From the sequence record LC739533.1: a stretch of DNA of 64,000 bases. The stretch is one strand, 5' to 3'. The notes under the pieces are model-generated. The model saw nothing but the letters and a program-made list of their open reading frames with translations, did no database searches and was not told where the DNA came from. A program made the position numbers and the translations under genes. Shown one piece after another: positions 2,961-28,110 of the stretch. This DNA is from Escherichia phage phiWec179. The first letter of the stretch is position 1. Every line of letters starts with the position of its first letter.

Positions 2961-2970
2961 GATCAACTCC

Positions 2971-9288: not shown

Positions 9289-9510
9289 TTATTCCTCGAT
9301 CACTTCTACATCCCAAGAGAAGAATACATAGTCACAACCTTCCCAAACATCATCCTCCAGGATCTCACAACCTTCCACTTTAGCCATCTCTTCTTGGGAA
9401 ACGAAGAATGTTTGCAGATCATCGCTGAAAAGGTGTGCTTCAACAACAAAAGGAAGCTGAACGTTCTCGAAACCTACATAGCCTGTAACATCAATAATCT
9501 TAATTTTCAT
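9289..9510 (-). CDS. hypothetical protein
   Basis: tiled ORF, 73 aa. Confidence 0.4.
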   Translation of the reverse strand: MKIKIIDVTGYVGFENVQLPFVVEAHLFSDDLQTFFVSQEEMAKVEGCEILEDDVWEGCDYVFFSWDVEVIEE

Positions 9511-9701
9511 GATGGTTCTCCTTTATAAAGTAAACCTCTTAGTTCGCATTCTGCCACCAATAGACGGTTGGCTTGATTGTCCATAGACACGTCTATCTCC
9601 ACACTCCAAGCATTAATATACACTTCGTTGATCTTTGCGTCAAGCATTTGTGCAACTAAAGCTACGGCTCCAGCATATTCAAGTTTGATCTCTATAATCA
9701 T
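9507..9701 (-). CDS. hypothetical protein
   Basis: tiled ORF, 64 aa. Confidence 0.4.
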   Translation of the reverse strand: MIIEIKLEYAGAVALVAQMLDAKINEVYINAWSVEIDVSMDNQANRLLVAECELRGLLYKGEPS

Positions 9702-15512: not shown

Positions 15513-15873
15513 GATAATCTCCTCTCTTGGTTTCATGACAAACATCCTAATTCTCAACGAGGAACATCTTACGATCAATCCTCGGCAATTACAATTCATT
15601 TATCATCGCTTTTCCCTATCAATTATTCTATATATACCTGTTATTTTTGACACCCCCTTTGGTCAAATATTAATCGGCAAAATATCTGGGGGTACTCTAT
15701 AAAATGATGCCCCCTGTTCCTGCAATTTATCGAGGAGAATATCATTCGACTATCATCGGCAAAGAGACAGAAAAGCCTTTGGTAGCAAGGATTTATGGCG
15801 AGTACGTCAGGACTGCTTAACGCGAATTTTTCGGCCCCTCCACTTCTGCGAGCCGGAATCCTCAAATATCAAT

Positions 15874-15892
15874 GAGAATAATTATCATTATC
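15874..15892. promoter_or_regulatory. Fur-box-like 19-bp site GAGAATAATTATCATTATC
   Basis: 16 of 19 matches to GATAATGATAATCATTATC by eye; half-site TGAGAAT shared with 30352..30465. Confidence 0.3.
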
Positions 15893-16055
15893 ATTCGTAT
15901 TCAATAACTTAGGCGATCTTTTCCCCTGCTATAAGGTCGGGCCTAACTTAACCATCACTTTTCAAACAATCCTTTATCAATCAACTACTTAACAACCTAA
16001 ACATATGATTACTACGGTGTAAAGGTGCCGCCCATAACAGACTACCTATAAAATA

Positions 16056-16075
16056 GATGAGAATGATTATTATTC
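16056..16075. promoter_or_regulatory. second operator-like site (GATGAGAATGATTATTATTC)
   Basis: same half-site family; preceded by CTATAAAAT as at 15687. Confidence 0.25.
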
Positions 16076-16269
16076 AGACAATTCTTACAACAAATCGACC
16101 AACAAATCAAGAATTTTCTTATTTTTATTCACGTTTAAGAGAACGTGCTCAACATTCCGCTACGCGTAACGGTTCGCCCCCAAAAGATTAGCCTTTGCTT
16201 TCCTGTATATTTATACACTATGTGCAAGGTGTCGCTACACGCTCGCCTTGCCCCGCATAATCCTTCACT

Positions 16270-16498
16270 GTGCTAATGATTTCATAGTGCAACAATAACA
16301 CTTATTATTATATTACGCTTAATTATTCTTACATACAATGCTAATAATAAGCCAGCGTAATTAGTGTAAGCGTAATACGCTTGCAATAATTGCAAGCTAC
16401 ATAATCACAAGAAATAACCATCACCGATGGTTATGATTGTGGGGGTGTAGTTGGCTTATTATTAGCTCGCTACGTGTCCGGCGTAGCGTGCTAATGAT
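16270..16498. repeat. nested repeat/palindrome element
   Basis: direct repeat GTGCTAATGAT at 16270 and 16488; 14-bp inverted repeat GCTAATAATAAGCC (16340-16353 / 16453-16466); perfect palindromes GCTTGCAATAATTGCAAGC (16379-16397) and ATAACCATCaccGATGGTTAT (16414-16434). Confidence 0.6.
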
Positions 16499-16577
16499 GA
16501 CTCTATGAATGATTCATTTTGCAATTATTACAGTCTTCACTATTTCGGCAATAGTTATTATTTTAATGGTTTCATTT

Positions 16578-16737
16578 GTTATCGTTAGTTAGTTGGTTGT
16601 TTTGTCGTGTTATCGTTATCTTGCTTAGTATTCATCATGGTTTGATTGTTTGTCGTTATCAATCATCTTTCTATTATTCCTTTGATTATGATTAGTTTGC
16701 TTATTGTTTTAAGTCGTTAGTTGGTTAGTTGTTGCGA
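16578..16737. repeat. iteron-like direct repeats
   Basis: TCGTTAGTT(AGTT)GGTT at 16581 and 16713; GTTATCGTTA / TGTCGTTATC recurring in T-rich ORF-free DNA. Confidence 0.45.
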
Positions 16738-17011
16738 ACTGTTATCAACATTATAGTTATGCACTTATATTGCATAGATACGCAAGGGTAGATGATAATG
16801 GTTATCATTGCACTGGAAAGGAAGAAAACAGCCTTTTTCGGTTGTTTGTTGTTGGTTGTTGATCGATTTTAACCGCTCTAAATAGCTCTCTAATAGCCTG
16901 TTGCCCTGGGGTGTATGGTTATTCGTTTAATGGTTGATTAGCTCGATACCGCGATCTATTCAGTTTTGTTCTGTGTCGGTTTTTCATAGGCGGAATCTAT
17001 CAACATTGTTC

Positions 17012-17052
17012 GGGCAAAAAGAAAGGGCGCTTTGTGCGCCCTTGTTTTGTTG
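17012..17052 (-). terminator. rho-independent terminator closing the minus-strand small-gene array
   Basis: hairpin AAGGGCGCtttgtGCGCCCTT flanked by T-runs on both strands, just past stop of 17057..17476. Confidence 0.6.
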
Positions 17053-17056
17053 TCAA

Positions 17057-17476
17057 TTATAACGCTTCATAGATTGAGTAGATCCGGTTTGCCAGGTCAT
17101 TACGAAAGCGGAATTTTTCATCACGTTTAATCATCAGATCCTTAAAACCGCATTCTTTCAAGGCTTCATTAACTTTACTGCGGCATACTTTCATATTGTC
17201 CTGCGCGTCACCAATAAACTTATTGCTATGATGCATTGTTTTGATCTCTTCCTCCAGGACCAGGGCAACTACACGGATCGGATCAAGCTGATACGCGGTA
17301 ACATCCATGCGGCATTGTAAACGGCTTTTAACATCGTTTACCGGATACACTGCAACCTCTTCCCCGTCAACGTTCACAATAACCAGCTTACCATCAATTT
17401 CGAAGCCTTTCGCGGCGCTACCGTGGCAAAAAGCGTTATCGAAGGAGTAAGCCGGATTATTTGATTTAATGTTCAT
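17057..17476 (-). CDS. hypothetical protein
   Basis: ATG at 17476; 139 aa. Confidence 0.5.
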   Translation of the reverse strand: MNIKSNNPAYSFDNAFCHGSAAKGFEIDGKLVIVNVDGEEVAVYPVNDVKSRLQCRMDVTAYQLDPIRVVALVLEEEIKTMHHSNKFIGDAQDNMKVCRSKVNEALKECGFKDLMIKRDEKFRFRNDLANRIYSIYEAL

Positions 17477-17521
17477 GTTGTTGTCCTTTGTTTCGTTTCG
17501 TTGTTTGCTGCCAGTGAGTTA

Positions 17522-17550
17522 AATATAATATAACGCCGATCCCCTGTCAA
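17522..17550 (-). promoter_or_regulatory. sigma70-like promoter
   Basis: minus strand TTGACA-N17-TATATT upstream of 17057..17476. Confidence 0.45.
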
Positions 17551-17585
17551 TAGGCGATAGCGCATTATTTACATTTCTTTACGTT

Positions 17586-17608
17586 AAAGGGCGCTTAGTG
17601 CGCCCCTT
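17586..17608 (-). terminator. intergenic hairpin (terminator-like)
   Basis: AAGGGCGCttagtGCGCCCCTT after stop of 17617..17985. Confidence 0.4.
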
Positions 17609-17616
17609 GTACAATC

Positions 17617-17985
17617 TTACTTTGTGCTGTTGTAAACGTTATCGCGTTCAACCATCAGGGCAAGGCGGATCAGTTGATCAGTTGTATCGCGTAAGCTGTC
17701 AGGCCATGTTTTATTGTTCCAGCTATCTAAATTTGATTGAATATAGGTTTCAATGGCTTGATCCATATTGTCGAACAAGTTTTCCTCCAAGCTCTCGGCT
17801 GTTTCACACTGGAAAGCATCAGCGACACTATTAATCAATAAGCAAGCCAGTAAATCAGCGTTGCGCCAATTTTTACGGATAGTTTCATCTGTCAGATAAC
17901 CAACGAGATTAACCTTTGCGCCAGTGGTGGACGTTGCGATCACTTCTTGCGCTTTTTCAACTGCTTTAATTGCTGATTTGCTCAT
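17617..17985 (-). CDS. hypothetical protein
   Basis: AAAGAGGAAAAG + ATG; 122 aa. Confidence 0.5.
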   Translation of the reverse strand: MSKSAIKAVEKAQEVIATSTTGAKVNLVGYLTDETIRKNWRNADLLACLLINSVADAFQCETAESLEENLFDNMDQAIETYIQSNLDSWNNKTWPDSLRDTTDQLIRLALMVERDNVYNSTK

Positions 17986-18063
17986 CTTCTTTTCCTCTTT
18001 GTGGGCTTGCTGTATTGCTTGCCCTACGCAATAACTATAAGTTAACAGGGTGTATAAAGCAAG

Positions 18064-18297
18064 CTATTTTTTATAAAATTTTTCTGCTGTGATATTCTTC
18101 CCTGTAGGCTTAACCGCTTGCAAGATCTTATCATGTGCCGAACGTCCAAAGGAATAAGATCCGTAAACGGTAAACCAATAATCCCCGTTCGGTTGAACGG
18201 TTACGGCGGCGTATGGTGTGCCTTTTTCATTATCACCAATAAAGTGTGAAACATTGCCGTTAACGTTCGGTTTAGTGCTTTTAATTTGTTCGATCAT
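18064..18297 (-). CDS. hypothetical protein
   Basis: AGGAG + ATG; preceded by cassette 18314..18374. Confidence 0.5.
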   Translation of the reverse strand: MIEQIKSTKPNVNGNVSHFIGDNEKGTPYAAVTVQPNGDYWFTVYGSYSFGRSAHDKILQAVKPTGKNITAEKFYKK

Positions 18298-18313
18298 GAT
18301 GTGACTCCTAAAT

Positions 18314-18374
18314 CAGGCGGGAAACATTCCCGCCCTACGTGATAAATAATAATATAAGGGTGATCCGGTGTCAA
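18314..18374 (-). promoter_or_regulatory. promoter + 5'UTR stem-loop cassette (PeSL-like)
   Basis: minus strand TTGACA-N17-TATTAT, hairpin CGGGAAACATTCCCG, SD, ATG. Confidence 0.55.
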
Positions 18375-18515
18375 TAGGTAGAATTGTAAAGATTTGATAG
18401 TTTATCTCTTTGATGTTTTGTTGTTTGATAGGTGTTAGCTATCAATATATAGCGGGGTCGTCCGGTGATTACCTCCCCCGTTGCCAGTGCCGCCCGTTCA
18501 GTAAGCATAACAAAA

Positions 18516-18545
18516 AACAGGACAAAAACAAGCCCTGTTTTGTAA
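18516..18545 (-). terminator. rho-independent terminator
   Basis: minus strand AACAGGgcttgtttttgtCCTGTT followed by TTTTTTG after stop of 18549..18752. Confidence 0.5.
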
Positions 18546-18548
18546 AGA

Positions 18549-18752
18549 TTAGATGATCTGCATATCCTCCACGATAATTTCTAATTTCCAAACAAGATGA
18601 TCTAAGCTCCCTGATAAAAATGATTCCGATACATAACCGCCATCGGACACCGTAGCAAGGATCTCGCCATTTGCTTGCTCTTTGATTTGAACATCCAGGC
18701 GGTTAGCCTTTGCTTTGTTCAGGACGGCGATCAAGCGGTTAGCTGTAGTCAT
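18549..18752 (-). CDS. hypothetical protein
   Basis: 67 aa; cassette upstream. Confidence 0.45.
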   Translation of the reverse strand: MTTANRLIAVLNKAKANRLDVQIKEQANGEILATVSDGGYVSESFLSGSLDHLVWKLEIIVEDMQII

Positions 18753-18770
18753 GGTGTTTTCCTTCCAGTC

Positions 18771-18830
18771 GTGAGCGGCACCATTGCCGCCCTACGTGAT
18801 ACATCTTACACTATCAGATACATTGTGCAA
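18771..18830 (-). promoter_or_regulatory. promoter + 5'UTR stem-loop cassette (PeSL-like)
   Basis: minus strand TTGCAC-N17-TAAGAT GTATCACGTAGG + hairpin GCGGCAATGGTGCCGC. Confidence 0.6.
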
Positions 18831-18836
18831 GCTATT

Positions 18837-19028
18837 TTAGATCTCGTCACCTATATAATCAGATCTGTTTTTCTCTGTCATACGCTTAAGCAATTCTTGC
18901 ATATGGCTTATAGCTTGCAATGTGTCTTCTTCCAGGCTTGAATCGAGATAATCAGGATCATTCTTTACCTTGCTATGGTTGTGATACCGCAACGCTGCTA
19001 ATACCTTTCTAACTTGTTCTGCATTCAT
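18837..19028 (-). CDS. hypothetical protein
   Basis: AAGGAG + ATG; 63 aa. Confidence 0.45.
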   Translation of the reverse strand: MNAEQVRKVLAALRYHNHSKVKNDPDYLDSSLEEDTLQAISHMQELLKRMTEKNRSDYIGDEI

Positions 19029-19171
19029 TTTTATTACTCCTTAAAACCAGGTGCCAACCGTTTCCAATAAGTCACTGACTACCAGAACAACATTGATTAG
19101 CACATATTTAATCAGGAAGGGGATTAGCGCCAGCGTCGCTACTATGATCCCCATTATGATGATTATTTTTC

Positions 19172-19462
19172 TCATGGTTGGCGGTTTACGTGGGCTTTAC
19201 CGTTTACGGTCATCGGTATGGCCTCAAGGTCTGGATCTTCCTTAAGGTCGCGTGCAAGCTCACCGCACCGGATACCCTCGAATCCGTGGTATTCTGTTTC
19301 CCCGTCCTTAAAAGTTTTAGCGGCAAGGCATAGGCGATAATTAACACCGATCCGGTTTACTGCGTTGATATCGGTTAACGTGATCGATTCCGGCAAATCG
19401 TTAGCCATTACAGGCGCGTTAATACCAACAACCAGGGCAACTACTGCGATCATCTTTTTCAT
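19172..19462 (-). CDS. small secreted protein
   Basis: signal-peptide-like MKKMIAVVALVVGINAPVMA. Confidence 0.5.
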   Translation of the reverse strand: MKKMIAVVALVVGINAPVMANDLPESITLTDINAVNRIGVNYRLCLAAKTFKDGETEYHGFEGIRCGELARDLKEDPDLEAIPMTVNGKAHVNRQP

Positions 19463-19491
19463 GTGTCTATCCTCTTCCTATTGCGTTTAAT

Positions 19492-19508
19492 GGGGGCGTT
19501 GCCGCCCC
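19492..19508 (-). promoter_or_regulatory. 5'UTR GC hairpin (no clear promoter)
   Basis: GGGGCGttgcCGCCCC upstream of 19172..19462. Confidence 0.4.
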
Positions 19509-19517
19509 GCTTATGGT

Positions 19518-19754
19518 TTATTGCTTGATGTTATGATGAAAGTTATTTTCTTCAACGGCTTTTAAAATAAAAGCCGTGATCGCTTTCGTGTCTACTTGTT
19601 CGAACGTATCAGAATAGCACCAATAATAATCATCCCCTACTTTCGGCGGGTAAACCTGGACAAGGAGATCCCCACCATGTTGATCTATAAGCTCAACATG
19701 TAAGCCGGATGATTCAGCGGTTTTAACGGCGTTTAATACTGTTGCAATACTCAT
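19518..19754 (-). CDS. hypothetical protein
   Basis: 78 aa. Confidence 0.45.
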   Translation of the reverse strand: MSIATVLNAVKTAESSGLHVELIDQHGGDLLVQVYPPKVGDDYYWCYSDTFEQVDTKAITAFILKAVEENNFHHNIKQ

Positions 19755-19773
19755 AATCTTTTCCTTTCTGATG

Positions 19774-19789
19774 TGGGGCGTTGCCGCCC
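19774..19789 (-). promoter_or_regulatory. 5'UTR GC hairpin (no promoter)
   Basis: GGGGCGttgcCGCCCC between 19799..20098 and 19518..19754. Confidence 0.4.
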
Positions 19790-19798
19790 CTTTGTTGA

Positions 19799-20098
19799 TT
19801 AGATCGCTGTTTCCAGTAGTTCGGCTAACGTCTTACCGCCTGATAGTTGGTCTAATGTTTGCTCTTCTGGCAAGAAATTAGCTGATATTAAACCGACTTG
19901 ATTCCCTTTGTGCCAGTTAGCCTGGCGGGTGATTCCATCCTTTAAGGATTTTACCGCCATTGTGCAACCGTCGCCAAATGATTCATTTTTATGGTCCATC
20001 ACTTCATAAGCGCCCAGCTTGCTGCTGTTAGGCACCATTAACGCGAATACATCACCAACAACCAGTTTTTCTACGGTAACAATAGCGATAGTTTCCAT
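19799..20098 (-). CDS. hypothetical protein
   Basis: 99 aa; cassette upstream. Confidence 0.5.
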   Translation of the reverse strand: METIAIVTVEKLVVGDVFALMVPNSSKLGAYEVMDHKNESFGDGCTMAVKSLKDGITRQANWHKGNQVGLISANFLPEEQTLDQLSGGKTLAELLETAI

Positions 20099-20116
20099 TT
20101 TGTTTTCCTCATTATC

Positions 20117-20173
20117 GGCGGCACCATTGCCGCCCTACGTGGTAAATATTATCACACTGGCGATCTGTGTCAA
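20117..20173 (-). promoter_or_regulatory. promoter + 5'UTR stem-loop cassette (PeSL-like)
   Basis: TTGACA-N17-TAATAT TTACCACGTAGG + hairpin GGCGGCAATGGTGCCGCC. Confidence 0.6.
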
Positions 20174-20179
20174 TACTTT

Positions 20180-20566
20180 TTATTCAATATAAATCAAATT
20201 ATCTTCACCAATGTAAGCCGACACGTCCGGCATGAATTTAGCGGCATTTGTTAGGCGGTTGGCTGTGTTAGTTGTGTATATTTCAGGGCGATCCCAAAAT
20301 CCTACGCCGTGACCGTTACGGGTAAAATGTAAATCATTGCCGATCTGGTTGGCTGTAGCGCCGTCGCTCATTGCCTCAGAGATAGCGGCAAGATTAGCAT
20401 TAATAAAGGCTGTTACATCTTGGGCGATTCGTTCATCCGCACCAGGAGAAAAATCATAATCGCCTAAGTTATCAATAAAATCACCTTCGTGATCCCTGGC
20501 TGATTCAGCAAAAATAAAAGCCTCTTTATAACCGTTGATGATTTCAATAATGATTTCTGTTTTCAT
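20180..20566 (-). CDS. hypothetical protein
   Basis: 128 aa. Confidence 0.5.
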   Translation of the reverse strand: MKTEIIIEIINGYKEAFIFAESARDHEGDFIDNLGDYDFSPGADERIAQDVTAFINANLAAISEAMSDGATANQIGNDLHFTRNGHGVGFWDRPEIYTTNTANRLTNAAKFMPDVSAYIGEDNLIYIE

Positions 20567-20787
20567 GCTGTACGCTCGACAATAATAATAGTTTGCGGGA
20601 TCTCGTTTTCTACTACTAACAAGGCTTTTTTCTGTGTGATAGATATTTTAACACGTTGTAAAGTAGCGGTAAAGTCTTTCATTTCGTTATGCGCCGACTT
20701 GCTGCAATGCCAGATCTCAGGCTTACCGACTTGTAAGCCGCGTAAAAATTCTGTTTTGCCTGTTTTGTTCGTGATCATCTGTTTCAC
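20563..20787 (-). CDS. hypothetical protein
   Basis: 74 aa. Confidence 0.45.
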   Translation of the reverse strand: MKQMITNKTGKTEFLRGLQVGKPEIWHCSKSAHNEMKDFTATLQRVKISITQKKALLVVENEIPQTIIIVERTA

Positions 20788-20788
20788 C

Positions 20789-20893
20789 TTAACCGATACC
20801 GTGGGAAGATAGGATCATATTAGCCATAGTTGCAACCACTCCAACCGATAACGCCAGGCCAACCACTGCAACCGTGAAAATTTTCTCTAACAT
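20789..20893 (-). CDS. small hydrophobic peptide (34 aa)
   Basis: GAGGG + ATG directly after cassette; MLEKIFTVAVVGLALSVGVVATMANMILSSHGIG; below ORF-track cutoff. Confidence 0.3.
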   Translation of the reverse strand: MLEKIFTVAVVGLALSVGVVATMANMILSSHGIG

Positions 20894-20911
20894 GATGCTA
20901 CCCTCATTAAT

Positions 20912-20974
20912 GGGCGTTGCCTTATTGCCCCGCCCTACAAGATGAATACTACGCGCTTATTTTGCTGTTGTCAA
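20912..20974 (-). promoter_or_regulatory. promoter + 5'UTR stem-loop cassette (PeSL-like, divergent)
   Basis: TTGACA-N17-TAGTAT + GC hairpin. Confidence 0.45.
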
Positions 20975-21139
20975 CAACGGGCGAAAAAACTTTTTGATCT
21001 GGCTTGCTGTTAGGCGCATATCTGCTTTGAGCGTTGCCAGGCGATAAGCTTTACCCTTAACCAGTTTATGGTGTCCGGTGCCGTTGCCGATGATAACATC
21101 AATTTCACACAATACGCGGGAAGCATCAATCTTTTTCAT
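20957..21139 (-). CDS. hypothetical protein
   Basis: 60 aa. Confidence 0.4.
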   Translation of the reverse strand: MKKIDASRVLCEIDVIIGNGTGHHKLVKGKAYRLATLKADMRLTASQIKKFFRPLLTTAK

Positions 21140-21159
21140 GTTGTTACCTTTCGTGTTAT

Positions 21160-21215
21160 GGGGCGCTTGTCGCCCCCTGTCTGATAAAGATAATCCCTTT
21201 CGGGATATCTGTCAA
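21160..21215 (-). promoter_or_regulatory. promoter + 5'UTR stem-loop cassette (PeSL-like)
   Basis: TTGACA-N17-TATCTT + hairpin GGGGCGACAAGCGCCCC. Confidence 0.5.
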
Positions 21216-21221
21216 CTATTT

Positions 21222-21407
21222 TTATTGTACGGTGTGGCGATCGCTGTATTCAGCGTAAAACTCACATCCATCGTCACGGCTATCAAGTTTAACGATGTAC
21301 CCGCTATTCCAACGTTCAACTGATACTACCGGATAATACTTCCCGTTAAGGATATTTTTCACCAGGTCGCCTTTTACCAGTTCTTTCGTTTTCTTATAAG
21401 TAGTCAT
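21222..21407 (-). CDS. hypothetical protein
   Basis: GAGAAAACATC + ATG at 21407 (MTTYKK). Confidence 0.45.
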   Translation of the reverse strand: MTTYKKTKELVKGDLVKNILNGKYYPVVSVERWNSGYIVKLDSRDDGCEFYAEYSDRHTVQ

Positions 21408-21427
21408 GATGTTTTCTCTTCTGTTTT

Positions 21428-21488
21428 GCGGTGGACCGTTCCGCCGCCCTATGTGGTAAACTATACGCGCCAACGTTCCAGGCGTCAA
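21428..21488 (-). promoter_or_regulatory. promoter + 5'UTR stem-loop cassette (PeSL-like)
   Basis: TTGACG-N17-TATAGT TTACCACATAGG + hairpin GCGGCGGAACGGTCCACCGC. Confidence 0.55.
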
Positions 21489-21606
21489 GCATATTTTTAA
21501 AATTATTTTCTACAACGTAAAACGCCCCAGCATAAGCCAGGGCGCACTAATTAAATCAGGTAGGGGGATTGCATTGCCTTACACCTTTTAGGCTGTTAGC
21601 TGGCGA

Positions 21607-21834
21607 TTAATAGCGTAGGATGTTTACACGCTCATCCCGCCCCAAGATATCCTCATATCTGTTTCCCCTTCCTTCGTACCAGATGATCACGGTATGAGGA
21701 TCAAACGGATTGTTTTCGATAGCCGTTACCTTGCAGAAGTCATAAGACGGGAACGGATAAACGCCAACCTGTAAACGCGCCCGATCTCCTGGGCGAATGG
21801 TAGCGGCACGATCTGCAATGATATTGTTATACAT
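21607..21834 (-). CDS. hypothetical protein
   Basis: 75 aa. Confidence 0.45.
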   Translation of the reverse strand: MYNNIIADRAATIRPGDRARLQVGVYPFPSYDFCKVTAIENNPFDPHTVIIWYEGRGNRYEDILGRDERVNILRY

Positions 21835-21958
21835 GGTGCACCCCCTTAATATTTTTCTTTTTCTTTGCTTCCGTTCGTCTAAGGTTACGGCTTGACTTGT
21901 TACGCAAGGCGCTCAAATCATCATAACCTTTAAAAGGTTGCATATTGTTCGGATTCAT
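21827..21958 (-). CDS. small basic protein (start uncertain)
   Basis: AAGGGG + ATG at 21958; Lys/Arg-rich C-terminus. Confidence 0.3.
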   Translation of the reverse strand: MNPNNMQPFKGYDDLSALRNKSSRNLRRTEAKKKKNIKGVHHV

Positions 21959-21968
21959 GCTACGCCCC

Positions 21969-22247
21969 TTAACGGTTATAGATATTGTGGATAGTGATAA
22001 AGGCGCTACGGTCATAAGCTGCCAAATCGGGATTGATCCAAGTGTTATCTAATAGTGTTTCAAGGATAATAGACTCATCATGAATAGCATCATAGAAATC
22101 AGGGTTAATAATGGTGTCAATGTCGCTTTCTGTTAACTCTACATTCAGCTTGCAAACCGCTTGCAAATCGGCTTCACGCTTCCAATCTTGCAGATTAGTA
22201 GTCAGAATGTTGGTGATCTCTTCGGTAGATAATTTGGTGATGGTCAT
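21969..22247 (-). CDS. hypothetical protein
   Basis: 92 aa; cassette upstream. Confidence 0.5.
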   Translation of the reverse strand: MTITKLSTEEITNILTTNLQDWKREADLQAVCKLNVELTESDIDTIINPDFYDAIHDESIILETLLDNTWINPDLAAYDRSAFITIHNIYNR

Positions 22248-22265
22248 GATATTTTCTCTCTGTTA

Positions 22266-22323
22266 GGCGGGGCGCTTGTCGCCCCTATGTGATACATCTT
22301 ATCAGGTTGATTCAGCTTGTCAA
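22266..22323 (-). promoter_or_regulatory. promoter + 5'UTR stem-loop cassette (PeSL-like)
   Basis: TTGACA-N17-TAAGAT GTATCACATAGG + hairpin GGCGACAAGCGCCCCGCC. Confidence 0.6.
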
Positions 22324-22329
22324 TACTTT

Positions 22330-22536
22330 TTAACGTGTCGCGTAAATAATATTACTTGCCGGACTACTGCAAACCAGGTTAAGCGGCTTGCTGTTATATT
22401 GCATCTTGTCGGCTTGTTTGCTTGCTGCGATGATTCCATCTATTACACGTTGCAAACTAACCTTTACCGCCTTTTTTGCCAACCGTTGACGCTTTACCAG
22501 TGCCTGGATCTTTTTCTTGTCTGCGTTGCTTAACAT
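22330..22536 (-). CDS. hypothetical protein
   Basis: 68 aa. Confidence 0.45.
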   Translation of the reverse strand: MLSNADKKKIQALVKRQRLAKKAVKVSLQRVIDGIIAASKQADKMQYNSKPLNLVCSSPASNIIYATR

Positions 22537-22545
22537 GGTGCGCCC

Positions 22546-22725
22546 TTACTTGTTAGCCGGATTGTATGCCAGGATCGCGCCGCTTGCTTTCACGCTTTCA
22601 TCTTCATAGTTGCGCAGATCGTTTTCTGTAAGATTGAGCGCGATCACTTCCTCGATCTCAATGCCAGTGGCAAGGGCGATCTCTTTAATGATGTTTGATG
22701 ATCTGATAACGTTTACTGTTTTCAT
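22546..22725 (-). CDS. hypothetical protein
   Basis: AAGGTG + ATG at 22725 (MKTVNVIRSS). Confidence 0.4.
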   Translation of the reverse strand: MKTVNVIRSSNIIKEIALATGIEIEEVIALNLTENDLRNYEDESVKASGAILAYNPANK

Positions 22726-22735
22726 GGTGTGCACC

Positions 22736-22855
22736 TTATAAGATGATTGATAAGATAGTGATAACGAAAGCGATAACACCAACGGCGATCGTAGTCTTAC
22801 GCCCTTCGGATACTGCCGGATTCTCTACCGTGTATTCTACTGTGTATTTGTTCAT
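22736..22855 (-). CDS. small membrane peptide (39 aa)
   Basis: GAGAGGATAACACA + ATG; hydrophobic C-terminus IAVGVIAFVITILSIIL; below ORF-track cutoff. Confidence 0.3.
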   Translation of the reverse strand: MNKYTVEYTVENPAVSEGRKTTIAVGVIAFVITILSIIL

Positions 22856-22878
22856 TGTGTTATCCTCTCGCTTGCTTT

Positions 22879-22935
22879 GAGAACTATTCCCGCCGCCCTA
22901 TGAATTAAATATACACTATCCCAAAATGATTGCAA
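22879..22935 (-). promoter_or_regulatory. promoter + 5'UTR structured cassette (divergent)
   Basis: TTGCAA-N17-ATATTT AATTCATAGGGCGGCGGG. Confidence 0.4.
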
Positions 22936-22954
22936 GCCTTTTTCTAAATTATTT

Positions 22955-23239
22955 TTATGCAGTAAACAGACCATCATTTACAACGGCGGCGATGATCTCC
23001 CGTGCCATTGATTCAGGGAACGGGGCGCTATAGTCCTGGCTTGTCTCGTCGCTGTCTGTTACCCAATGATAAGCCAACGAGTAAAAGCCTTTACTCCCTG
23101 TTTTCAGTGAAACGATGATCACTCGGTTAAGTCCATCGGTAAACGTTGCCGTTAATGTGTTATCATCTTGCGTCATGTTGGACAAGTAAGCGGCATCATT
23201 AACCAGGGAAAACAGTAGCACCGTGTTAGCTTTAACCAT
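22955..23239 (-). CDS. hypothetical protein
   Basis: GAGGAT + ATG at 23239 (MVKANTVLLF). Confidence 0.45.
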   Translation of the reverse strand: MVKANTVLLFSLVNDAAYLSNMTQDDNTLTATFTDGLNRVIIVSLKTGSKGFYSLAYHWVTDSDETSQDYSAPFPESMAREIIAAVVNDGLFTA

Positions 23240-23258
23240 GATTTGATCCTCAAACGGG

Positions 23259-23310
23259 CGCGGCACCATTGCCGCCCTACGTAATACACTTTACCTTATT
23301 TCTTCCAAAA
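23259..23310 (-). promoter_or_regulatory. promoter + 5'UTR stem-loop cassette (PeSL-like)
   Basis: TAAAGT -10, GTATTACGTAGG + hairpin GCGGCAATGGTGCCGC; -35 weak, overlaps upstream gene end. Confidence 0.45.
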
Positions 23311-23496
23311 AGCAAGTTTATTTGCAATTGGTGACAAATAACGTTTACCCGCGTAAAACAGTACAGCGACACTAACCACGGCGGCGATCTCATGCATAGC
23401 CGACGGGAAACGAGTATCATAATAAGATCCAATAATAGCAATAGCGGCAACGGCTGCAACGTCGATAATGATTTTTTCTTGTTTTGCGGTGATCAT
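23296..23496 (-). CDS. small membrane protein
   Basis: hydrophobic VAAVAAIAIIGSYY and VVSVAVLFYAG. Confidence 0.45.
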   Translation of the reverse strand: MITAKQEKIIIDVAAVAAIAIIGSYYDTRFPSAMHEIAAVVSVAVLFYAGKRYLSPIANKLAFWKK

Positions 23497-23516
23497 AATA
23501 TTTACCTTTTTGTATG

Positions 23517-23578
23517 GTGGGGGGAACTATTCCCCGCCCTGATGTAATACAGTTTAACAGATCCGGTTATAGTGTCAA
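23517..23578 (-). promoter_or_regulatory. promoter + 5'UTR stem-loop cassette (PeSL-like)
   Basis: TTGACA-N17-TAAACT GTATTACATCAGGGCGG + hairpin GGGAATAGTTCCCC. Confidence 0.55.
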
Positions 23579-23584
23579 CCACTT

Positions 23585-23770
23585 TTAAAGATATTTTATA
23601 CTGATAACATTTTCCGGTTTAACCTGGTTGTGATAAGCATCAATGTAAATCAAACCATCGTTAGAAACGCCCAGGATCACGCCTTGCGCAATAAAACCGT
23701 ATCGGTCGCGGTAACGTGCCGCCACTTTGTTCGCTGCGTTGTAGGCTGTTTTAATCTCGTTTAAGGTCAT
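23585..23770 (-). CDS. hypothetical protein
   Basis: 61 aa. Confidence 0.45.
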   Translation of the reverse strand: MTLNEIKTAYNAANKVAARYRDRYGFIAQGVILGVSNDGLIYIDAYHNQVKPENVISIKYL

Positions 23771-23797
23771 GTGCTGTTATCCTCTCGTTAGATATAA

Positions 23798-23828
23798 GAA
23801 AGGGCGCTATTTGCGCCCTTGATTTGTT
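23798..23828 (-). terminator. intergenic hairpin (terminator/attenuator-like)
   Basis: AAGGGCGCtatttGCGCCCTT, same motif family as 17023 and 17588. Confidence 0.4.
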
Positions 23829-23975
23829 TTAGTCTTCCAGGTCCATCCATGCACGTTTCTCGGTGCGGTCGCGCTTAGTTTTGTTGCGCTTGTCGCCCTT
23901 GCGGATCACTTCTTCATTCCACGCTGCGCGTGTTTTAGAAGATTGGATTTTTTCGGCGCGATTAGATGTATTCAT
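23829..23975 (-). CDS. small basic protein (48 aa)
   Basis: GAGGAAACATC + ATG after cassette; MNTSNRAEKIQSSKTRAAW...; below ORF-track cutoff. Confidence 0.35.
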   Translation of the reverse strand: MNTSNRAEKIQSSKTRAAWNEEVIRKGDKRNKTKRDRTEKRAWMDLED

Positions 23976-23995
23976 GATGTTTCCTCTTTTTAGTT

Positions 23996-24056
23996 GTGAG
24001 CGGCACCATTGCCGCCCTACGTGTTTTAATTTACTTTATTGTTTGATGCCTGTCAA
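23996..24056 (-). promoter_or_regulatory. promoter + 5'UTR stem-loop cassette (PeSL-like)
   Basis: TTGACA-N17-TAAATT + hairpin GCGGCAATGGTGCCGC. Confidence 0.55.
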
Positions 24057-24073
24057 CTACTTTTAAAAACTTT

Positions 24074-24427
24074 TTATTCGTGGGAAAGTGTAAGGATCAC
24101 ACCTGCAATATATAACCAATAGTTTTCCCTTTCTTTCTGGATCTTGTTTTCGCTACTACGCTCGTTAATGTACCCCCAGGATGTTAACAACCGATCTACT
24201 TCCCAATACTCGAAAGCTATATTAATATTTGACGGTAAACCTTGTAACCATGATGCTATTGCTCTGATAATGTTATGATCGTAACGTTTTTGATTATCGG
24301 TGTACCAATATTCAGATTTAAAACAGCGCATCAATTCCGCGATCTTCTCTTTCTCTTCTGTGATGCCATACTCGCTATAATCAATTGAGGCCAGAATATA
24401 AAGTTTAATTGCATTTTGTGCTTTCAT
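24074..24427 (-). CDS. hypothetical protein
   Basis: 117 aa; cassette upstream. Confidence 0.5.
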   Translation of the reverse strand: MKAQNAIKLYILASIDYSEYGITEEKEKIAELMRCFKSEYWYTDNQKRYDHNIIRAIASWLQGLPSNINIAFEYWEVDRLLTSWGYINERSSENKIQKERENYWLYIAGVILTLSHE

Positions 24428-24444
24428 GGTGTCTCTCTTCTGTT

Positions 24445-24504
24445 GTGAGCGGCACCATTGCCGCCCTATGTGTTACATCTTACCGGATTTTTAAAACTTG
24501 TCAA
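24445..24504 (-). promoter_or_regulatory. promoter + 5'UTR stem-loop cassette (PeSL-like)
   Basis: TTGACA-N17-TAAGAT GTAACACATAGG + hairpin GCGGCAATGGTGCCGC. Confidence 0.6.
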
Positions 24505-24726
24505 TCATTTTTCTACTATCATTTGATAACCTGTTTCAAGGTTAGTAAACACCGTGATCCCGTCCTGGCGTTCACTCATAAGCAAGCAAGGCGCTAACAT
24601 CCTTCCTACTTCCTTGCACTCGTTATAAGCGGCGGTAATGTCTCCCGCTGCTTTGTCTTCTGTGGTGAATGTATCGTTTACGTAAACTTTACCAGCGACA
24701 ACGGCGACAATAGCAAAAGTGATCAT
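24505..24726 (-). CDS. hypothetical protein
   Basis: GAGGAAAACATC + ATG at 24726 (MITFAIVAV). Confidence 0.45.
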   Translation of the reverse strand: MITFAIVAVVAGKVYVNDTFTTEDKAAGDITAAYNECKEVGRMLAPCLLMSERQDGITVFTNLETGYQMIVEK

Positions 24727-24804
24727 GATGTTTTCCTCTTTGTGTTTTTCGTTTTGATTAGTTGATAATACAGCAATTCGCAGATTAGTCTTTAGCAATT
24801 CATG

Positions 24805-25023
24805 CTATTTACTCACAACAGTATCGAAAACAAATTTTTCTTTGTTGTCGAAGCTAACATATCCGATTCGACCACGCAAGCCGCCAGTAGTGCCGTATTC
24901 GTAACCATCAAGGCCTTTAACCTTCCAATCCGTACCCATTAAAACCGCATTATATTTCTGACCAACTACAAACGCGCCACCAGTTGATTCAATGCAAACA
25001 ACTTTAATTTTACGGATTGCCAT
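24805..25023 (-). CDS. hypothetical protein
   Basis: 72 aa. Confidence 0.45.
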   Translation of the reverse strand: MAIRKIKVVCIESTGGAFVVGQKYNAVLMGTDWKVKGLDGYEYGTTGGLRGRIGYVSFDNKEKFVFDTVVSK

Positions 25024-25101
25024 TTTCTTTCTCTCTTTGTGGTGATTGGTTTCTCTTCTCTATAGCGCCCATTATAAGGCGCTATAACGAAAAGTCAACG
25101 A

Positions 25102-25269
25102 TTATTTTTTACGGCTTAAGGTGCCCAAGTTATCAGCGTGACGCAGACCAGGGAAGATCCAAGCGCCGGATTCATCTTTTACAGGTGCCTTAACACTTGC
25201 GCCCAGGTTGGCGGCGTTAACTTTACGTGCTACGTTGCGAGCGGCTTCACGGGTAGTAAAAGTAATCAT
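25102..25269 (-). CDS. small protein (55 aa)
   Basis: GAGGAAAACATC + ATG (MITFTTREAARNV...), same initiation module as 24505..24726; below ORF-track cutoff. Confidence 0.35.
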   Translation of the reverse strand: MITFTTREAARNVARKVNAANLGASVKAPVKDESGAWIFPGLRHADNLGTLSRKK

Positions 25270-25293
25270 GATGTTTTCCTCTTCTCTTTGTTA

Positions 25294-25355
25294 GGCGGTG
25301 GACCATTCCGCCGCCTTGATGTAATACAGTTTACTCTATTTTTATTTCTTTGCAA
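25294..25355 (-). promoter_or_regulatory. promoter + 5'UTR stem-loop cassette (PeSL-like)
   Basis: TTGCAA-N17-TAAACT GTATTACATCAAGG + hairpin CGGCGGAATGGTCCACCGCC. Confidence 0.55.
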
Positions 25356-25500
25356 CTACTTTTATATTTTCTTTCTTTGCCTCTTCCACCTGGTCCGCCC
25401 ACTGCTTACCCCACGTTTGAGCGTTATAGTGATATTGACAAAGAGCAACACCACGTTTTAAACCAGCGATAGACTTTTTACCACATTGACAAGTTTTCAT
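25345..25500 (-). CDS. small Cys-containing protein (51 aa, tentative)
   Basis: ATG at 25500 (MKTCQCGKKS...); weak SD; 3' end overlaps cassette. Confidence 0.25.
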
Positions 25501-25511
25501 TTTGTGATCCC

Positions 25512-25724
25512 TTAGTTGATGATAGTCAGTGTAAAATTATAATCACCATTCTTATATAACACCATATTACCGAAGGTGCCGACTCGACGCATATCCATAC
25601 GGATACCTATAACATCTTTAACGTCTTTAATGTTTTTAACGCCCGTGATATCTTTATTAAAATATTCCTCGTCTGAAAATAAAACTTGACTTGCATTTTT
25701 TAACAGTGTGCGGATATTAGCCAT
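25512..25724 (-). CDS. hypothetical protein
   Basis: 70 aa; cassette upstream. Confidence 0.45.
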   Translation of the reverse strand: MANIRTLLKNASQVLFSDEEYFNKDITGVKNIKDVKDVIGIRMDMRRVGTFGNMVLYKNGDYNFTLTIIN

Positions 25725-25745
25725 CGTGATAATCTCTCTTCTGTT

Positions 25746-25805
25746 GTGAGCGGCACCATTGCCGCCCTACGTAATACAGTTTACTCTTTTTCTTTCCGGT
25801 GTCAA
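25746..25805 (-). promoter_or_regulatory. promoter + 5'UTR stem-loop cassette (PeSL-like)
   Basis: TTGACA-N17-TAAACT GTATTACGTAGG + hairpin GCGGCAATGGTGCCGC. Confidence 0.6.
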
Positions 25806-25813
25806 CAATCTTT

Positions 25814-26041
25814 TTAGATTAATTCGTCCAGGCATAACAGGCGATCAACGTTGAGATCGGTCAGGCTGATGGTTGGCACCTGATAAGATTCGATGTACTC
25901 GACGCTTGCATATTCCCCAAAGTTAGCAATAGCCCACTTATTCAAGATCTCACATACATCATTAATCTTTTTGTTTGTTACAACTGCAATAACCTGGGAA
26001 GTGCCAACGGTGCCGGATACGCGAACAATATTGATAGCCAT
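25814..26041 (-). CDS. hypothetical protein
   Basis: 75 aa; cassette upstream. Confidence 0.45.
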   Translation of the reverse strand: MAINIVRVSGTVGTSQVIAVVTNKKINDVCEILNKWAIANFGEYASVEYIESYQVPTISLTDLNVDRLLCLDELI

Positions 26042-26061
26042 GATTTTTCTCTCTTCTGTTA

Positions 26062-26119
26062 GGCGGGGCGCTTGTCGCCCCTATGTGATACATCTTACAC
26101 TAATTTAAAACTTTGTCAA
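26062..26119 (-). promoter_or_regulatory. promoter + 5'UTR stem-loop cassette (PeSL-like)
   Basis: TTGACA-N17-TAAGAT GTATCACATAGG + hairpin GGCGACAAGCGCCCCGCC. Confidence 0.6.
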
Positions 26120-26214
26120 ATTATTTTCTATTTCTTCCGTAATAGCCCAATTTATGATCTAAGCTAAAACGTTTTGTGAGATAGGTCGAACGATGTTTCA
26201 TTTTTATGTCTCCT

Positions 26215-26454
26215 TTACATTCCAACCATAGCGGCGCGGATCGCGGTAGTGCTATACTTGAAACCGTCTGGAGTTTTATCTTGTCCAGTCTGTTCCAGAA
26301 AGAGCATCATATCACGCGCCGCATCGTTACGGTTAGAATTATAACTAATAAATTCTTTCGCGGTGCGGTATAATGATTCATCGTTATTAATCCAAAGGCT
26401 TACATTCCAATGAGTTTTGTTTTTGTGACCTAAGAACATTTTTGATTTAGCCAT
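26215..26454 (-). CDS. hypothetical protein
   Basis: 79 aa; cassette upstream. Confidence 0.45.
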   Translation of the reverse strand: MAKSKMFLGHKNKTHWNVSLWINNDESLYRTAKEFISYNSNRNDAARDMMLFLEQTGQDKTPDGFKYSTTAIRAAMVGM

Positions 26455-26475
26455 GATGTTAATCTCTTTTTCAGT

Positions 26476-26537
26476 GAGGCGGGAACTATTCCCGCGCCCT
26501 ATGTAATACAGTTTACTCTTTTTATTCGTGCTGTCAA
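26476..26537 (-). promoter_or_regulatory. promoter + 5'UTR stem-loop cassette (PeSL-like)
   Basis: TTGACA-N17-TAAACT GTATTACATAGG + hairpin CGGGAATAGTTCCCGCC. Confidence 0.55.
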
Positions 26538-26543
26538 TGCTTT

Positions 26544-26897
26544 TTATAAATCTTTTTTACGTTTTACATCGCTTGCATGACTGTATACAGCGATCCCATT
26601 ATCACGACAAAAACGGGTAAGGTATGATCCGCGTGAAAACTCTTTCCCTTCCAGGTCAACAACCTTGCTAAATTCTTCCAGGGCAACGGTATCAAAATGA
26701 TCACCATAACCATATTGAAACGGCACGTTAACAACTTCAATCAATTTACCGCCGATCTCAACGTCCACGCTTAAAGAAAAATATGTGTTACCGTAGGACT
26801 GTTGAAACCAGCGACGGGCGCTAATGTGAACGGCTTCAATCTCACCAATTTTAAATTGAGTGTTACCCAGGATCGCAACGTTGATATTTTTAGCCAT
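26544..26897 (-). CDS. hypothetical protein
   Basis: 117 aa; cassette upstream. Confidence 0.5.
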   Translation of the reverse strand: MAKNINVAILGNTQFKIGEIEAVHISARRWFQQSYGNTYFSLSVDVEIGGKLIEVVNVPFQYGYGDHFDTVALEEFSKVVDLEGKEFSRGSYLTRFCRDNGIAVYSHASDVKRKKDL

Positions 26898-26920
26898 GAT
26901 TTTTTCTCTCTTTTTGGTTA

Positions 26921-26974
26921 GTGGGAAGTGTTCCCGATAAAAGTTATTATGCTTATACTATCGTTTTTTGTCAA
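26921..26974 (-). promoter_or_regulatory. promoter + 5'UTR stem-loop cassette (divergent)
   Basis: TTGACA-N18-ATAATA + hairpin GGGAACACTTCCC. Confidence 0.45.
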
Positions 26975-26993
26975 TAGTATAAGACTAAAACTT

Positions 26994-27173
26994 TTAACGA
27001 TAATCATCGTAGGCTTTATTAACCTGGCGAATATAACATTCGAAAGCGAGATCAATAGAATCATATTCCCGCACATAATCCCCGTAAGAAACTACATACA
27101 CACCTTTTTGATCCTCAAACGTCATGATGATAGAATCCAGGCCGATGATTTCAGTTTTAGCGATGATAGTCAT
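26994..27173 (-). CDS. small protein (59 aa)
   Basis: ATG at 27173 after cassette (MTIIAKTEIIGLD...); below ORF-track cutoff. Confidence 0.35.
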   Translation of the reverse strand: MTIIAKTEIIGLDSIIMTFEDQKGVYVVSYGDYVREYDSIDLAFECYIRQVNKAYDDYR

Positions 27174-27194
27174 AATAATAACCTTTTTATTGTT

Positions 27195-27251
27195 GGCGGC
27201 ACCATTGCCGCCCTACGTGATAAACTATACCAGAATTTTAAACAGTGTCAA
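27195..27251 (-). promoter_or_regulatory. promoter + 5'UTR stem-loop cassette (PeSL-like)
   Basis: TTGACA-N17-TATAGT TTATCACGTAGG + hairpin GGCGGCAATGGTGCCGCC. Confidence 0.6.
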
Positions 27252-27261
27252 ACGTTTTTTC

Positions 27262-27507
27262 TTAGTTTGCGAAATATGGCGCGGCGGCTGATGCCGTTAA
27301 TCTCCAAGTGATTTGGCTATCGATCAAGTATTCTTCATTCTTGATCCGCACGGTATCAATCGAGAAGTTACTGAAAGGCTTGCTCTTGATTTTACGAACA
27401 ACCGTTACACGACGGTTATTTTTCATCTCTTTTAACTGAATCCAGGCGTAACCTTTTTCATTGACAAATATTTCATTGTGATTGGTGATAGATGATAAGT
27501 GTTTCAT
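27262..27507 (-). CDS. hypothetical protein
   Basis: 81 aa; cassette upstream. Confidence 0.45.
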   Translation of the reverse strand: MKHLSSITNHNEIFVNEKGYAWIQLKEMKNNRRVTVVRKIKSKPFSNFSIDTVRIKNEEYLIDSQITWRLTASAAAPYFAN

Positions 27508-27528
27508 GATTTTTCTCTCTTCTGTTTT

Positions 27529-27590
27529 GAGCGGTGGACCATTCCGCCGCCCTATGTGTTACATCTTACTACTTTTTTAAACATTGTCAA
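27529..27590 (-). promoter_or_regulatory. promoter + 5'UTR stem-loop cassette (PeSL-like)
   Basis: TTGACA-N17-TAAGAT GTAACACATAGG + hairpin GGCGGCGGAATGGTCCACCGC. Confidence 0.6.
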
Positions 27591-27598
27591 GGATATTT

Positions 27599-27880
27599 TT
27601 AACTATATGATCCACATCGTTCGCAGTAGTGATCATCGTCGTCATCTGCTACCTGGCTGATAAAATGATCTACCTTTGCTTTCAAATTATTATAATTGCT
27701 TTCTACTTCCTGTAGTCGTCGTTGGTAGTATTCCAGGGCTTGCACATAGGCCATTTGTTCGGTTTTAGCTTGCATAGCTAAATTCATGCCACGCGTTTCA
27801 TCGTATAACCAATAACCATCATTACATTCACTAATAGATAGTGTAGGGCTTAGTTTTTCGTGACGGATAACCTTGCTCAT
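27599..27880 (-). CDS. hypothetical protein
   Basis: 93 aa; C-terminal CERCGS. Confidence 0.45.
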   Translation of the reverse strand: MSKVIRHEKLSPTLSISECNDGYWLYDETRGMNLAMQAKTEQMAYVQALEYYQRRLQEVESNYNNLKAKVDHFISQVADDDDDHYCERCGSYS

Positions 27881-27890
27881 AGTGTGCCCC

Positions 27891-28001: not shown

Positions 28002-28008
28002 GTTTTCC

Positions 28009-28092: not shown

Positions 28093-28110
28093 TTTTCTAT
28101 CCTTTCAGTT

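Follow-up and report, generated by a model that had tools for sequence, protein, structure and literature searches.

Fur boxes are textbook elements, and several described systems come close to the locus analyzed here. Temperate phages carry Fur-controlled cargo, as in the case of stx1. At the ftnA gene, Fur acts at a distance against H-NS silencing, and at lambda cos, IHF is a host protein that acts at a phage DNA end. Another Fur-controlled cargo, sitABCD, is found on lambdoid prophages (PMC6969025), and this was the only case that turned up when the literature was searched for Fur boxes in virulent phages; we found no report of Fur boxes as conserved features of virulent-phage genome ends. 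For real Fur operators, clusters of overlapping sites in a 6-bp (or 3-bp) register have been described (PMC2189734).

The injection stop of phage T5 has been unexplained since the 1980s and was still described as "poorly understood" in 2026. Davison gave 9618 as the calculated shear point of the T5 first-step transfer and discussed the stop region in terms of DnaA boxes and a possible A1/A2 cleavage of palindromes, with Fur absent from that discussion. In the papers of 2023–2026, the T5 stop signal still consists of unexplained repeats and palindromes, and neither Davison nor these recent papers call the repeats Fur boxes.

Fur-box sites in and near the terminal repeat

We analyzed a stretch of 64,000 nucleotides of Escherichia phage phiWec179 (LC739533.1), referred to below as the window. 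The window is Phapecoctavirus DNA. Its positions 15600-17100 are 98% identical to Escherichia phage phiWec181 and match 126 phage records, mostly of the genus Phapecoctavirus (Stephanstirmvirinae; ~150-kb myoviruses). The nearest complete genome is that of phiWec181 (154.5 kb), in whose record positions 21569-85568 correspond to the window. The same record carries at 1-3127 a dTDP-rhamnose block (rfbA-, rfbC- and rfbD-like genes, with a partial dTDP-glucose dehydratase at the record start), which is an unusual cargo for this phage group. The features on the left-hand side of the window are as follows.

15818-16149, no strand: direct terminal repeat (DTR), 332 bp, ends placed by homology
15871-15901, no strand: Fur-box array 1, made up of three 19-mers that overlap with a 6-bp offset (23.1, 20.3 and 11.9 bits)
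16056-16074, no strand: Fur box 2, 17.0 bits (19.4-21.6 bits in relatives)
16791-16809, no strand: Fur box 3, 19.4 bits, ~640 bp to the inside of the right-end DTR copy
17057-29555, minus strand: small-gene array, occupying the greater part of the 14.6 kb that separate the internal Fur array from the right genome end

In window orientation, the DTR begins with TAACGCGAATTTT and finishes with GTTTAAGAGAACGTGCT. For the relative Schickermooser, a 328-bp terminal repeat was reported by Korf et al. 2019 (PMC6563267). In the record of this phage, MK373788, bases 1-329 are 100% identical to bases 150866-151194, and at least 11 GenBank records start or end at the DTR point or within ~50 nt of it, several of them with both repeat copies. 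The plus direction of the virion is the minus strand of the window; therefore, the left physical end of the genome is 16149 and the right physical end is 15818. From the left physical end, the genes at 15599 and below are read inward. The right genome end starts on its inner side with the internal Fur array, and the small-gene array (29555 to 17057), a 900-bp noncoding stretch and, outermost, the DTR come after it.

Two of the Fur-box sites are located inside the DTR, array 1 (19-mers starting at 15871, 15877 and 15883) beginning 53 bp from the right physical end and box 2 lying 75 bp from the left physical end. The box 1 19-mer, AATGAGAATAATTATCATT, was identical in all eight Phapecoctavirus genomes scanned, and so was box 3, GATGATAATGGTTATCATT (8/8). 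Between clades, box 1 is shifted by 4-6 bp against its flanks, which matches the expectation for hexamer-built Fur arrays. Across nine aligned genomes, invariant columns made up 95% of box 2 (18/19), 74% of array 1 and 83-85% of the DTR edges, compared with 45-48% of the DTR DNA between the boxes. In other words, the DTR boxes are kept while the intervening DTR DNA drifts. A search of IMG/VR for related loci returned three, two of which were not alignable.

Several other elements were noticed in this part of the window. The centre of the DTR (15978-15990) has an IHF-consensus-like sequence, AATCAACTACTTA, for which the aligned sequence of the phAPEC8 clade is TATCAATGGTTTG. The 900-bp noncoding stretch adjoining the DTR is filled by a T-rich run of GTTATCGTTA-type repeats, and nested inverted repeats occupy 16290-16760, with perfect 15-nt arms at 16340-16354 and 16452-16466 and another pair at 16382-16395 and 16519-16532.

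To score the sites, we derived a Fur matrix by unseeded palindromic expectation-maximisation, with 40 random starts, from 11 Fur-regulated intergenic regions of E. coli K-12 (fepA-fes, fepD-entS, fepB-entC, feoA, ryhB, fecA, fecI, fhuA, cirA, exbB and tonB). The procedure converged on AATGATAATCATTATCATT, in which the base that distinguishes TGAGAAT from TGATAAT is a G with a frequency of 19%. The best E. coli sites score 10.0-21.6 bits (leave-one-out median 16.7, maximum 20.5), and the E. coli half-sites include ATTCTCA in ryhB, fhuA, exbB and feoA and TGAGAAT in fecI.

By this E. coli matrix, the phage sites score 15.8-23.2 bits. The sites at 15871-15889 (23.1 bits) and 30407-30425 (23.0 bits) are above all 11 E. 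coli training sites, and the others in the window start at 15877 (20.3), 16791 (19.4), 30447 (17.4), 16056 (17.0), 30356 (16.9), 30413 (16.8) and 30379 (16.1). All nine window sites of at least 16 bits fall within 15871-16809 or 30356-30465, the next best scoring 13.0 bits. Similarly, in the whole 154.5-kb phiWec181 genome, 9/9 sites of at least 16 bits are located in two noncoding regions, and the best scores elsewhere are 15.1 and 14.9. In 84 kb of E. coli DNA, the matrix reached 16 bits only at known Fur promoters, and a scan of phage T1 gave nothing above 13.3 bits.

A first-pass annotation of this DNA had singled out GAGAATAATTATCATTATC at 15874-15892 and GATGAGAATGATTATTATTC at 16056-16075 as Fur-box-like, and both strings do lie at these positions. 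The 16/19 identities that it counted between the former and the 19-bp Fur consensus are correct for the plus strand, and the minus strand gives even 17/19; consensus matches with three or fewer mismatches are expected only 0.05 times from window shuffles. The TGAGAAT half-site, which it described as shared with the internal region, is real and forms part of a 7-1-7 repeat, TGAGAATnATT(A/C)T(C/T)A, found at 15873, 16058, 30358, 30409 and 30449. An additional 7-1-7-type sequence, TGATAATGGTTATCA at 16793, had been overlooked. The claim of a shared tail needs correction, as the two places have TCATTCGTATT in common, whereas the literal ATTCTCATTCG occurs only at 30423 and the left region has ATTATCATTCG. 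Overall, 28 of 31 nt are identical between 15871-15901 and 30407-30437. The term "Fur-box-like" itself is strongly supported, with window sites of up to 23.1 bits against an E. coli maximum of 21.6.

Could these sites be chance matches in AT-rich noncoding DNA? The two regions are indeed 61-64% A+T. However, when the matrix was run against shuffled DNA, the check that the first-pass annotation had proposed, nine sites of at least 16 bits stood against 0.04 expected per window from dinucleotide shuffles (0.003 for the left noncoding region and 0.001 for the DTR). The observed site counts were reached by 0 of 200-1000 shuffles, the local set comprising 1000 dinucleotide shuffles, and the 19-mers are identical across genomes with diverged flanks. 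Chance matching is refuted by the shuffles together with this cross-genome identity, and we give it practically no weight.

The overlap in 6-bp register described for real operators is present in the phage at 15871/15877/15883 and 30407/30413. An overlap with the -35/-10 elements or the start of a regulated promoter was found at one site only, box 3, which overlaps a weak minus-strand promoter-like site (16819-16792). The promoter scan found no promoter-like sites over boxes 1 and 2, and the first leftward promoter is at 15653-15625, with the DTR boxes standing hundreds of bp upstream of it without overlap. Promoter overlap is a typical and not a strictly defining feature, and many accepted Fur sites have no such geometry. 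By E. coli's own standard, the flagged sequences are, at the level of sequence, shown to be Fur boxes.

For the GAGAAT..ATTCTC core, an RcsB/RcsAB box was also considered, which is a 14-bp element, TN(G/A)GAN4TC(T/C)NA, with a 4-nt centre. The 7-1-7 arrangement of the phage sites leaves a 5-nt centre between GA and TC, and their flanks extend the Fur palindrome to 19-21 bp. The RcsB box was rejected because the spacing differs.

The internal array, the small-gene array and the T5 stop region

The second group of sites lies on the far side of the small-gene array, where the following features were found.

30356-30465, no strand: internal Fur-box array, boxes starting at 30356 (16.9), 30379 (16.1), 30407 (23.0), 30413 (16.8) and 30447 (17.4 bits)
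30266-30293, plus strand: extended -10 promoter (TTGCTT-13-TGtTATTCT), predicted
30478-30539 and 30617-30678 (region 30478-30721), plus strand: two 62-nt direct repeats, downstream of the Fur array
30605, 30691 and 30714, plus strand: three TTGAGATA motifs, downstream of the Fur array

The internal array is located in unique DNA, 14.6 kb (~9.4%) from the right physical end and 57-166 nt downstream of the predicted conserved promoter, and its box at 30413 overlaps that at 30407 in the 6-bp register. The promoter elements CTTG + TGnTA.T.T are invariant in Phapecoctavirus, Justusliebigvirus (phi92), Vequintavirus (FFH2) and Seunavirus (PVP-SE1), and a G-rich leader of ~55 nt (30300-30355) on the 3' side of the promoter is kept in the same four genera. 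All four have Fur boxes of 17-24 bits at the corresponding place; the array is conserved in anhysbys and phAPEC8, with scores of up to 24.0 bits, and is likewise kept in phi92, FFH2 and PVP-SE1. In these last three phages (about 2700-3050 of their loci), three iteron-like repeats follow the boxes and differ between genera. By analogy, the order of promoter, AT-rich boxes and iterons resembles a transcription-activated replication origin.

The promoter and leader together (30266-30355) extend over four genera and two subfamilies, and in PVP-SE1 an indel interrupts the reading frame. The predicted transcript from the 30266-30293 promoter contains no ORF and matches no Rfam family; it may serve for priming or be an undescribed small RNA. 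The two noncoding regions as a whole also gave no Rfam match and no tRNAs. Pfam and PHROGs assigned no function to the ORFs adjoining the array, including the 88-aa ORF at 29830-30096. Directly 3' of this ORF, in the segment 30099-30250, a sigma-70 promoter close to consensus (TTGACA-17-TATACT) has a G+C-rich hairpin in its spacer, and its product of ~120 nt contains no ORF and belongs to no known family. The minus strand at 30917-31444, just within the boundary of the internal noncoding region, encodes a protein with a NADAR domain (Pfam E = 1e-33).

One stretch of the array, 30405-30433, was flagged as terminator-like, with an 11-bp stem followed by a T-rich tail, and it lies downstream of the conserved promoter, as would be expected if the sites were RNA hairpins or intrinsic terminators instead of protein-binding DNA. 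However, the stems are AU-rich, with three G-C pairs, and the DTR sites have no upstream promoter. Furthermore, the DTR sites are imperfect palindromes of which each half is a good Fur half-site (TGAGAAT / ATTATCA, ATTATTA); therefore, it is the sequence that is conserved and not the pairing. An RNA function of this kind is very improbable.

The first-pass annotation had noted that related sites stand at both ends of the small-gene array, which is literally true (15871-16809 and 30356-30465), and had proposed from this bracketing a coordinated, possibly iron-responsive control of the array. This proposal was not supported. No Fur-matrix hit above 11.8 bits was found within 17057-29555 or in the upstream promoter region 29556-29720, and iron control of the small-gene array is unsupported because its own promoters are without a Fur box. 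The terminator of the array is at 17023-17043, and the left Fur sites lie ~1 kb beyond it, inside the DTR. At the other end, a plus-strand gene and a near-consensus plus-strand promoter stand between the internal Fur array and the small-gene array, and the 30266-30293 promoter points away from the latter. The two places are linked by the architecture of the genome ends and not by the control of an operon.

Relative to both of its flanks, the small-gene array shows a far weaker GC skew and a more strongly negative AT skew, though the coding strand is the same, and it looks like a compositionally distinct module. GC skew was uninformative as to a replication origin, as it changes at the borders of the small-gene array and its sign flips only near 36-37 kb.

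When the internal array was used as a blastn query, it matched T5-like phages, where the matching DNA is noncoding and lies at the inner end of the terminal repeat. The matching T5 sequences are annotated as "direct repeat C copies 1-4" and "palindromes E-I" (9468-9637) of Repeat Region 3. This cluster adjoins major nick 1 (9661), and after the cluster comes "direct repeat A", GTTGAGATAA, with TTGAGATA as its core. When the first 50 kb of T5 were scored, sites of at least 16 bits occurred only at 9473-9636 (n = 5; 19.2, 24.0, 16.0, 19.4 and 18.6 bits). The "direct repeat C" palindromes are the best Fur boxes of these 50 kb, which makes a role of Fur in the stop testable. A lone Fur-like site of 15.9 bits lies at 231-249 of T5, 231 bp from the left end and inside dmp, and echoes the DTR boxes of Phapecoctavirus.

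The two regions are alike in having 4-5 consensus-level Fur boxes within ~110-165 bp, in the position of the cluster, 8-10% from one genome end and bounding small early genes, and in the TTGAGATA repeats that come after the boxes in identical order and orientation. On the other hand, the T5 cluster is inside a 10.1-kb terminal repeat, whereas here the DTR measures 332 bp and the array is in unique DNA. T5 also has paired DnaA boxes, nine copies of direct repeat D, a nick site and A1/A2, none of which is present here. No DnaA box with one or no mismatch was found in 29550-30920 (a single 1-mismatch box is at 16742), the eight paired DnaA boxes as defined by Davison (inverted repeats IRD'/IRC') do not occur at the internal array, and direct repeat D is absent from its vicinity. 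By its definition, the T5 stop-signal family does not include this region; only the Fur-box and TTGAGATA components are common to both.

Could the array nevertheless mark the end of a first-transferred segment, with Fur and iron taking part in the pausing or resumption of genome entry? The shared layout would agree with this, the T5 boxes at 9473-9636 are at the shear point of 9618 and next to nick 1, and the mechanism of the stop was still called unknown in 2026. Sensitivity to daunorubicin is common to the Vequintavirinae and T5-like phages. However, T1 is also sensitive and has no Fur box; therefore, the daunorubicin correlation does not generalise, and we rejected a link between this sensitivity and the Fur boxes. 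Against an entry boundary also stand the missing DnaA-box pairs, direct repeat D and A1/A2 and a DTR of 332 bp where T5 has 10 kb. Moreover, no staged entry has been reported for these myoviruses, and it is hard to see how a protein of the cytoplasm could halt entry. We consider an entry boundary unlikely.

A broader form of the idea would see the Fur-box arrays as the conserved core of a boundary element in T5-like siphoviruses and rV5/phAPEC8/phi92-like myoviruses, with iron-loaded Fur sitting on the incoming DNA, both at the array and close to the DNA ends. Fur would then be the host part of the injection stop in T5, and in the myoviruses it would serve a comparable staged entry or a switch from early to middle development. 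This, too, is unlikely in our estimation; if it were true, host iron status would gate the progress of infection.

A host factor or a phage factor

The exact palindrome AATGAGAATNATTCTCATT is present in bacterial genomes of many phyla. Among 150 ORFs that start beside it, Pfam identified Fe-binding SBP (9), FUR (8), TonB Plug (8), FeoA (6), ECF sigma (6) and ZnuA (4), and the ORFs flanking AATGAGAATNATTCTCATT bear the signature of a Fur regulon. The same palindrome occurs in more than 120 IMG/VR viral contigs of 21-58% GC, a spread more readily accounted for by a conserved host protein than by one of phage origin. In these contigs, the palindrome does not lie beside iron genes; most of the adjoining ORFs have no known function, and the others include two small terminases, a portal, DUF5681, ClpP and Tad2. 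One group of viral contigs has TAAAATCGGCGCCnCAAATGAGAAT as a recurring context, in which a -10 box immediately precedes the Fur box. Among the viral-contig palindromes, several lie within ~30 nt of a contig end, and these distances are unusable, the locus flanks having been cut unevenly.

E. coli Fur was compared by tblastn with 50,697 phage records, and neither the Phapecoctavirus nor the T5-like ones yielded a homologue. A comparison of the 280 ORFs in the first 50 kb of T5 with the complete phiWec181 genome gave four enzyme-type matches (a Ser/Thr phosphatase, NrdB, a cell-wall hydrolase and a phosphoesterase), as well as one further match of 25 residues to an ORF annotated without a function. 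The T5 pre-early ORFs, A1 and A2 included, have no relative in phiWec181, and the factor common to the two phage groups is for this reason most simply a host one.

These observations bear on the possibility that the boxes are sites for a phage protein, such as a terminase subunit, an end-binding protein or an early regulator, and that the likeness to Fur is incidental or a form of mimicry. The distances of 53-75 bp between the boxes and the DTR cleavage points would suit such a protein, a few viral contigs have the palindrome beside small-terminase, portal or DUF5681 genes, and the 88-aa ORF without an assigned function adjoins the internal array. Nevertheless, an incidental likeness would mean that sequences scoring above all host Fur operators arose by coincidence, in more than one copy and in phage families without relationship to each other. 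No pre-early protein is common to T5 and this phage, no Fur-like phage protein was found, and the GC range of the viral contigs fits a universally conserved host factor. A phage-protein site is therefore improbable.

If Fur is the ligand, the boxes could also serve as a sponge that titrates Fur off host promoters during replication and thereby promotes iron uptake for ribonucleotide reductase. The genome would offer ~9-12 very high-scoring boxes, both DTR copies counted; derepression of the Fur regulon by multicopy Fur boxes is the principle of the Fur titration assay (PMC2189734), and the phage encodes NrdAB. A sponge, however, has no need of fixed positions, and the boxes are kept at exact places, at the DNA ends and after the promoter, in four genera. 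T5 degrades host DNA within minutes and yet keeps the cluster, and derepression of the host would be pointless there for that reason. We think a sponge has a small chance of being correct, if a slightly better one than an entry boundary or a phage-protein site.

The account that we favor and regard as probable, judging from sequence evidence, is that host Fur boxes are kept at the DTR, that is, at the genome ends, and in the internal array, and that Fur blocks formed there couple early development to host iron. Occupancy by Fur in vivo is what we infer, and the consequences of occupancy are conjecture. In an iron-replete cell, metal-loaded Fur dimers would bind side by side on the overlapping 6-bp registers and form stable protein–DNA blocks on the infecting genome. 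At the internal array, such a block would stop transcripts from the conserved promoter and would set the inner limit of the terminal segment of early genes; at the genome ends, Fur would occupy both DTR copies. Under iron starvation, the sites would be left vacant. In this way, the early development of the phage would be coupled to the iron status of the host, a plausible rationale being the dependence of the phage on the iron-requiring NrdAB reductase, which it encodes itself (nrdA/nrdB). The classical geometry of Fur control speaks against this account, as the DTR boxes overlap no promoter found in the scan and the internal array is downstream of its promoter and not over it. T5 also plates on fur mutants, and Fur is therefore unlikely to be essential for T5. 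The sites near the DNA ends could instead be for packaging or end processing.

If Fur does bind, large virulent coliphages would read the host iron state directly on the incoming DNA, and this would be relevant to phage therapy in iron-restricted infection sites. With more than 120 viral contigs carrying the exact palindrome beside non-iron genes, the use of Fur by phages may therefore be widespread.

Comparison with known Fur and genome-end systems

The phage sites share with the E. coli Fur operators (ryhB, fecI, fhuA, exbB and feoA) the 19-bp palindrome AATGA(T/G)AATnATT(A/C)TCATT and the overlapping sites in 6-bp register, and their scores are equal or higher. They differ in being located on a virulent genome, away from iron genes, with two boxes in the DTR without a promoter and the internal array 3' of a promoter.

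The Fur-controlled cargo of temperate phages resembles the present case in that a host Fur box is found on phage DNA. There, however, a single box lies over the promoter of an iron-related cargo, whereas here the boxes form arrays in noncoding landmarks of virulent phages. At ftnA, the likeness is one of distance and would hold by analogy, as Fur boxes stand hundreds of bp upstream of the promoter without overlapping it, just as the DTR boxes stand with respect to the promoter at 15653-15625.

IHF at lambda cos and the DnaA boxes of the T5 stop region are further analogies, in each of which an abundant host DNA-binding protein has a fixed place near the genome ends. Unlike IHF and DnaA, the candidate protein in the present case is a metal sensor; therefore, its occupancy of the phage DNA would depend on host iron.
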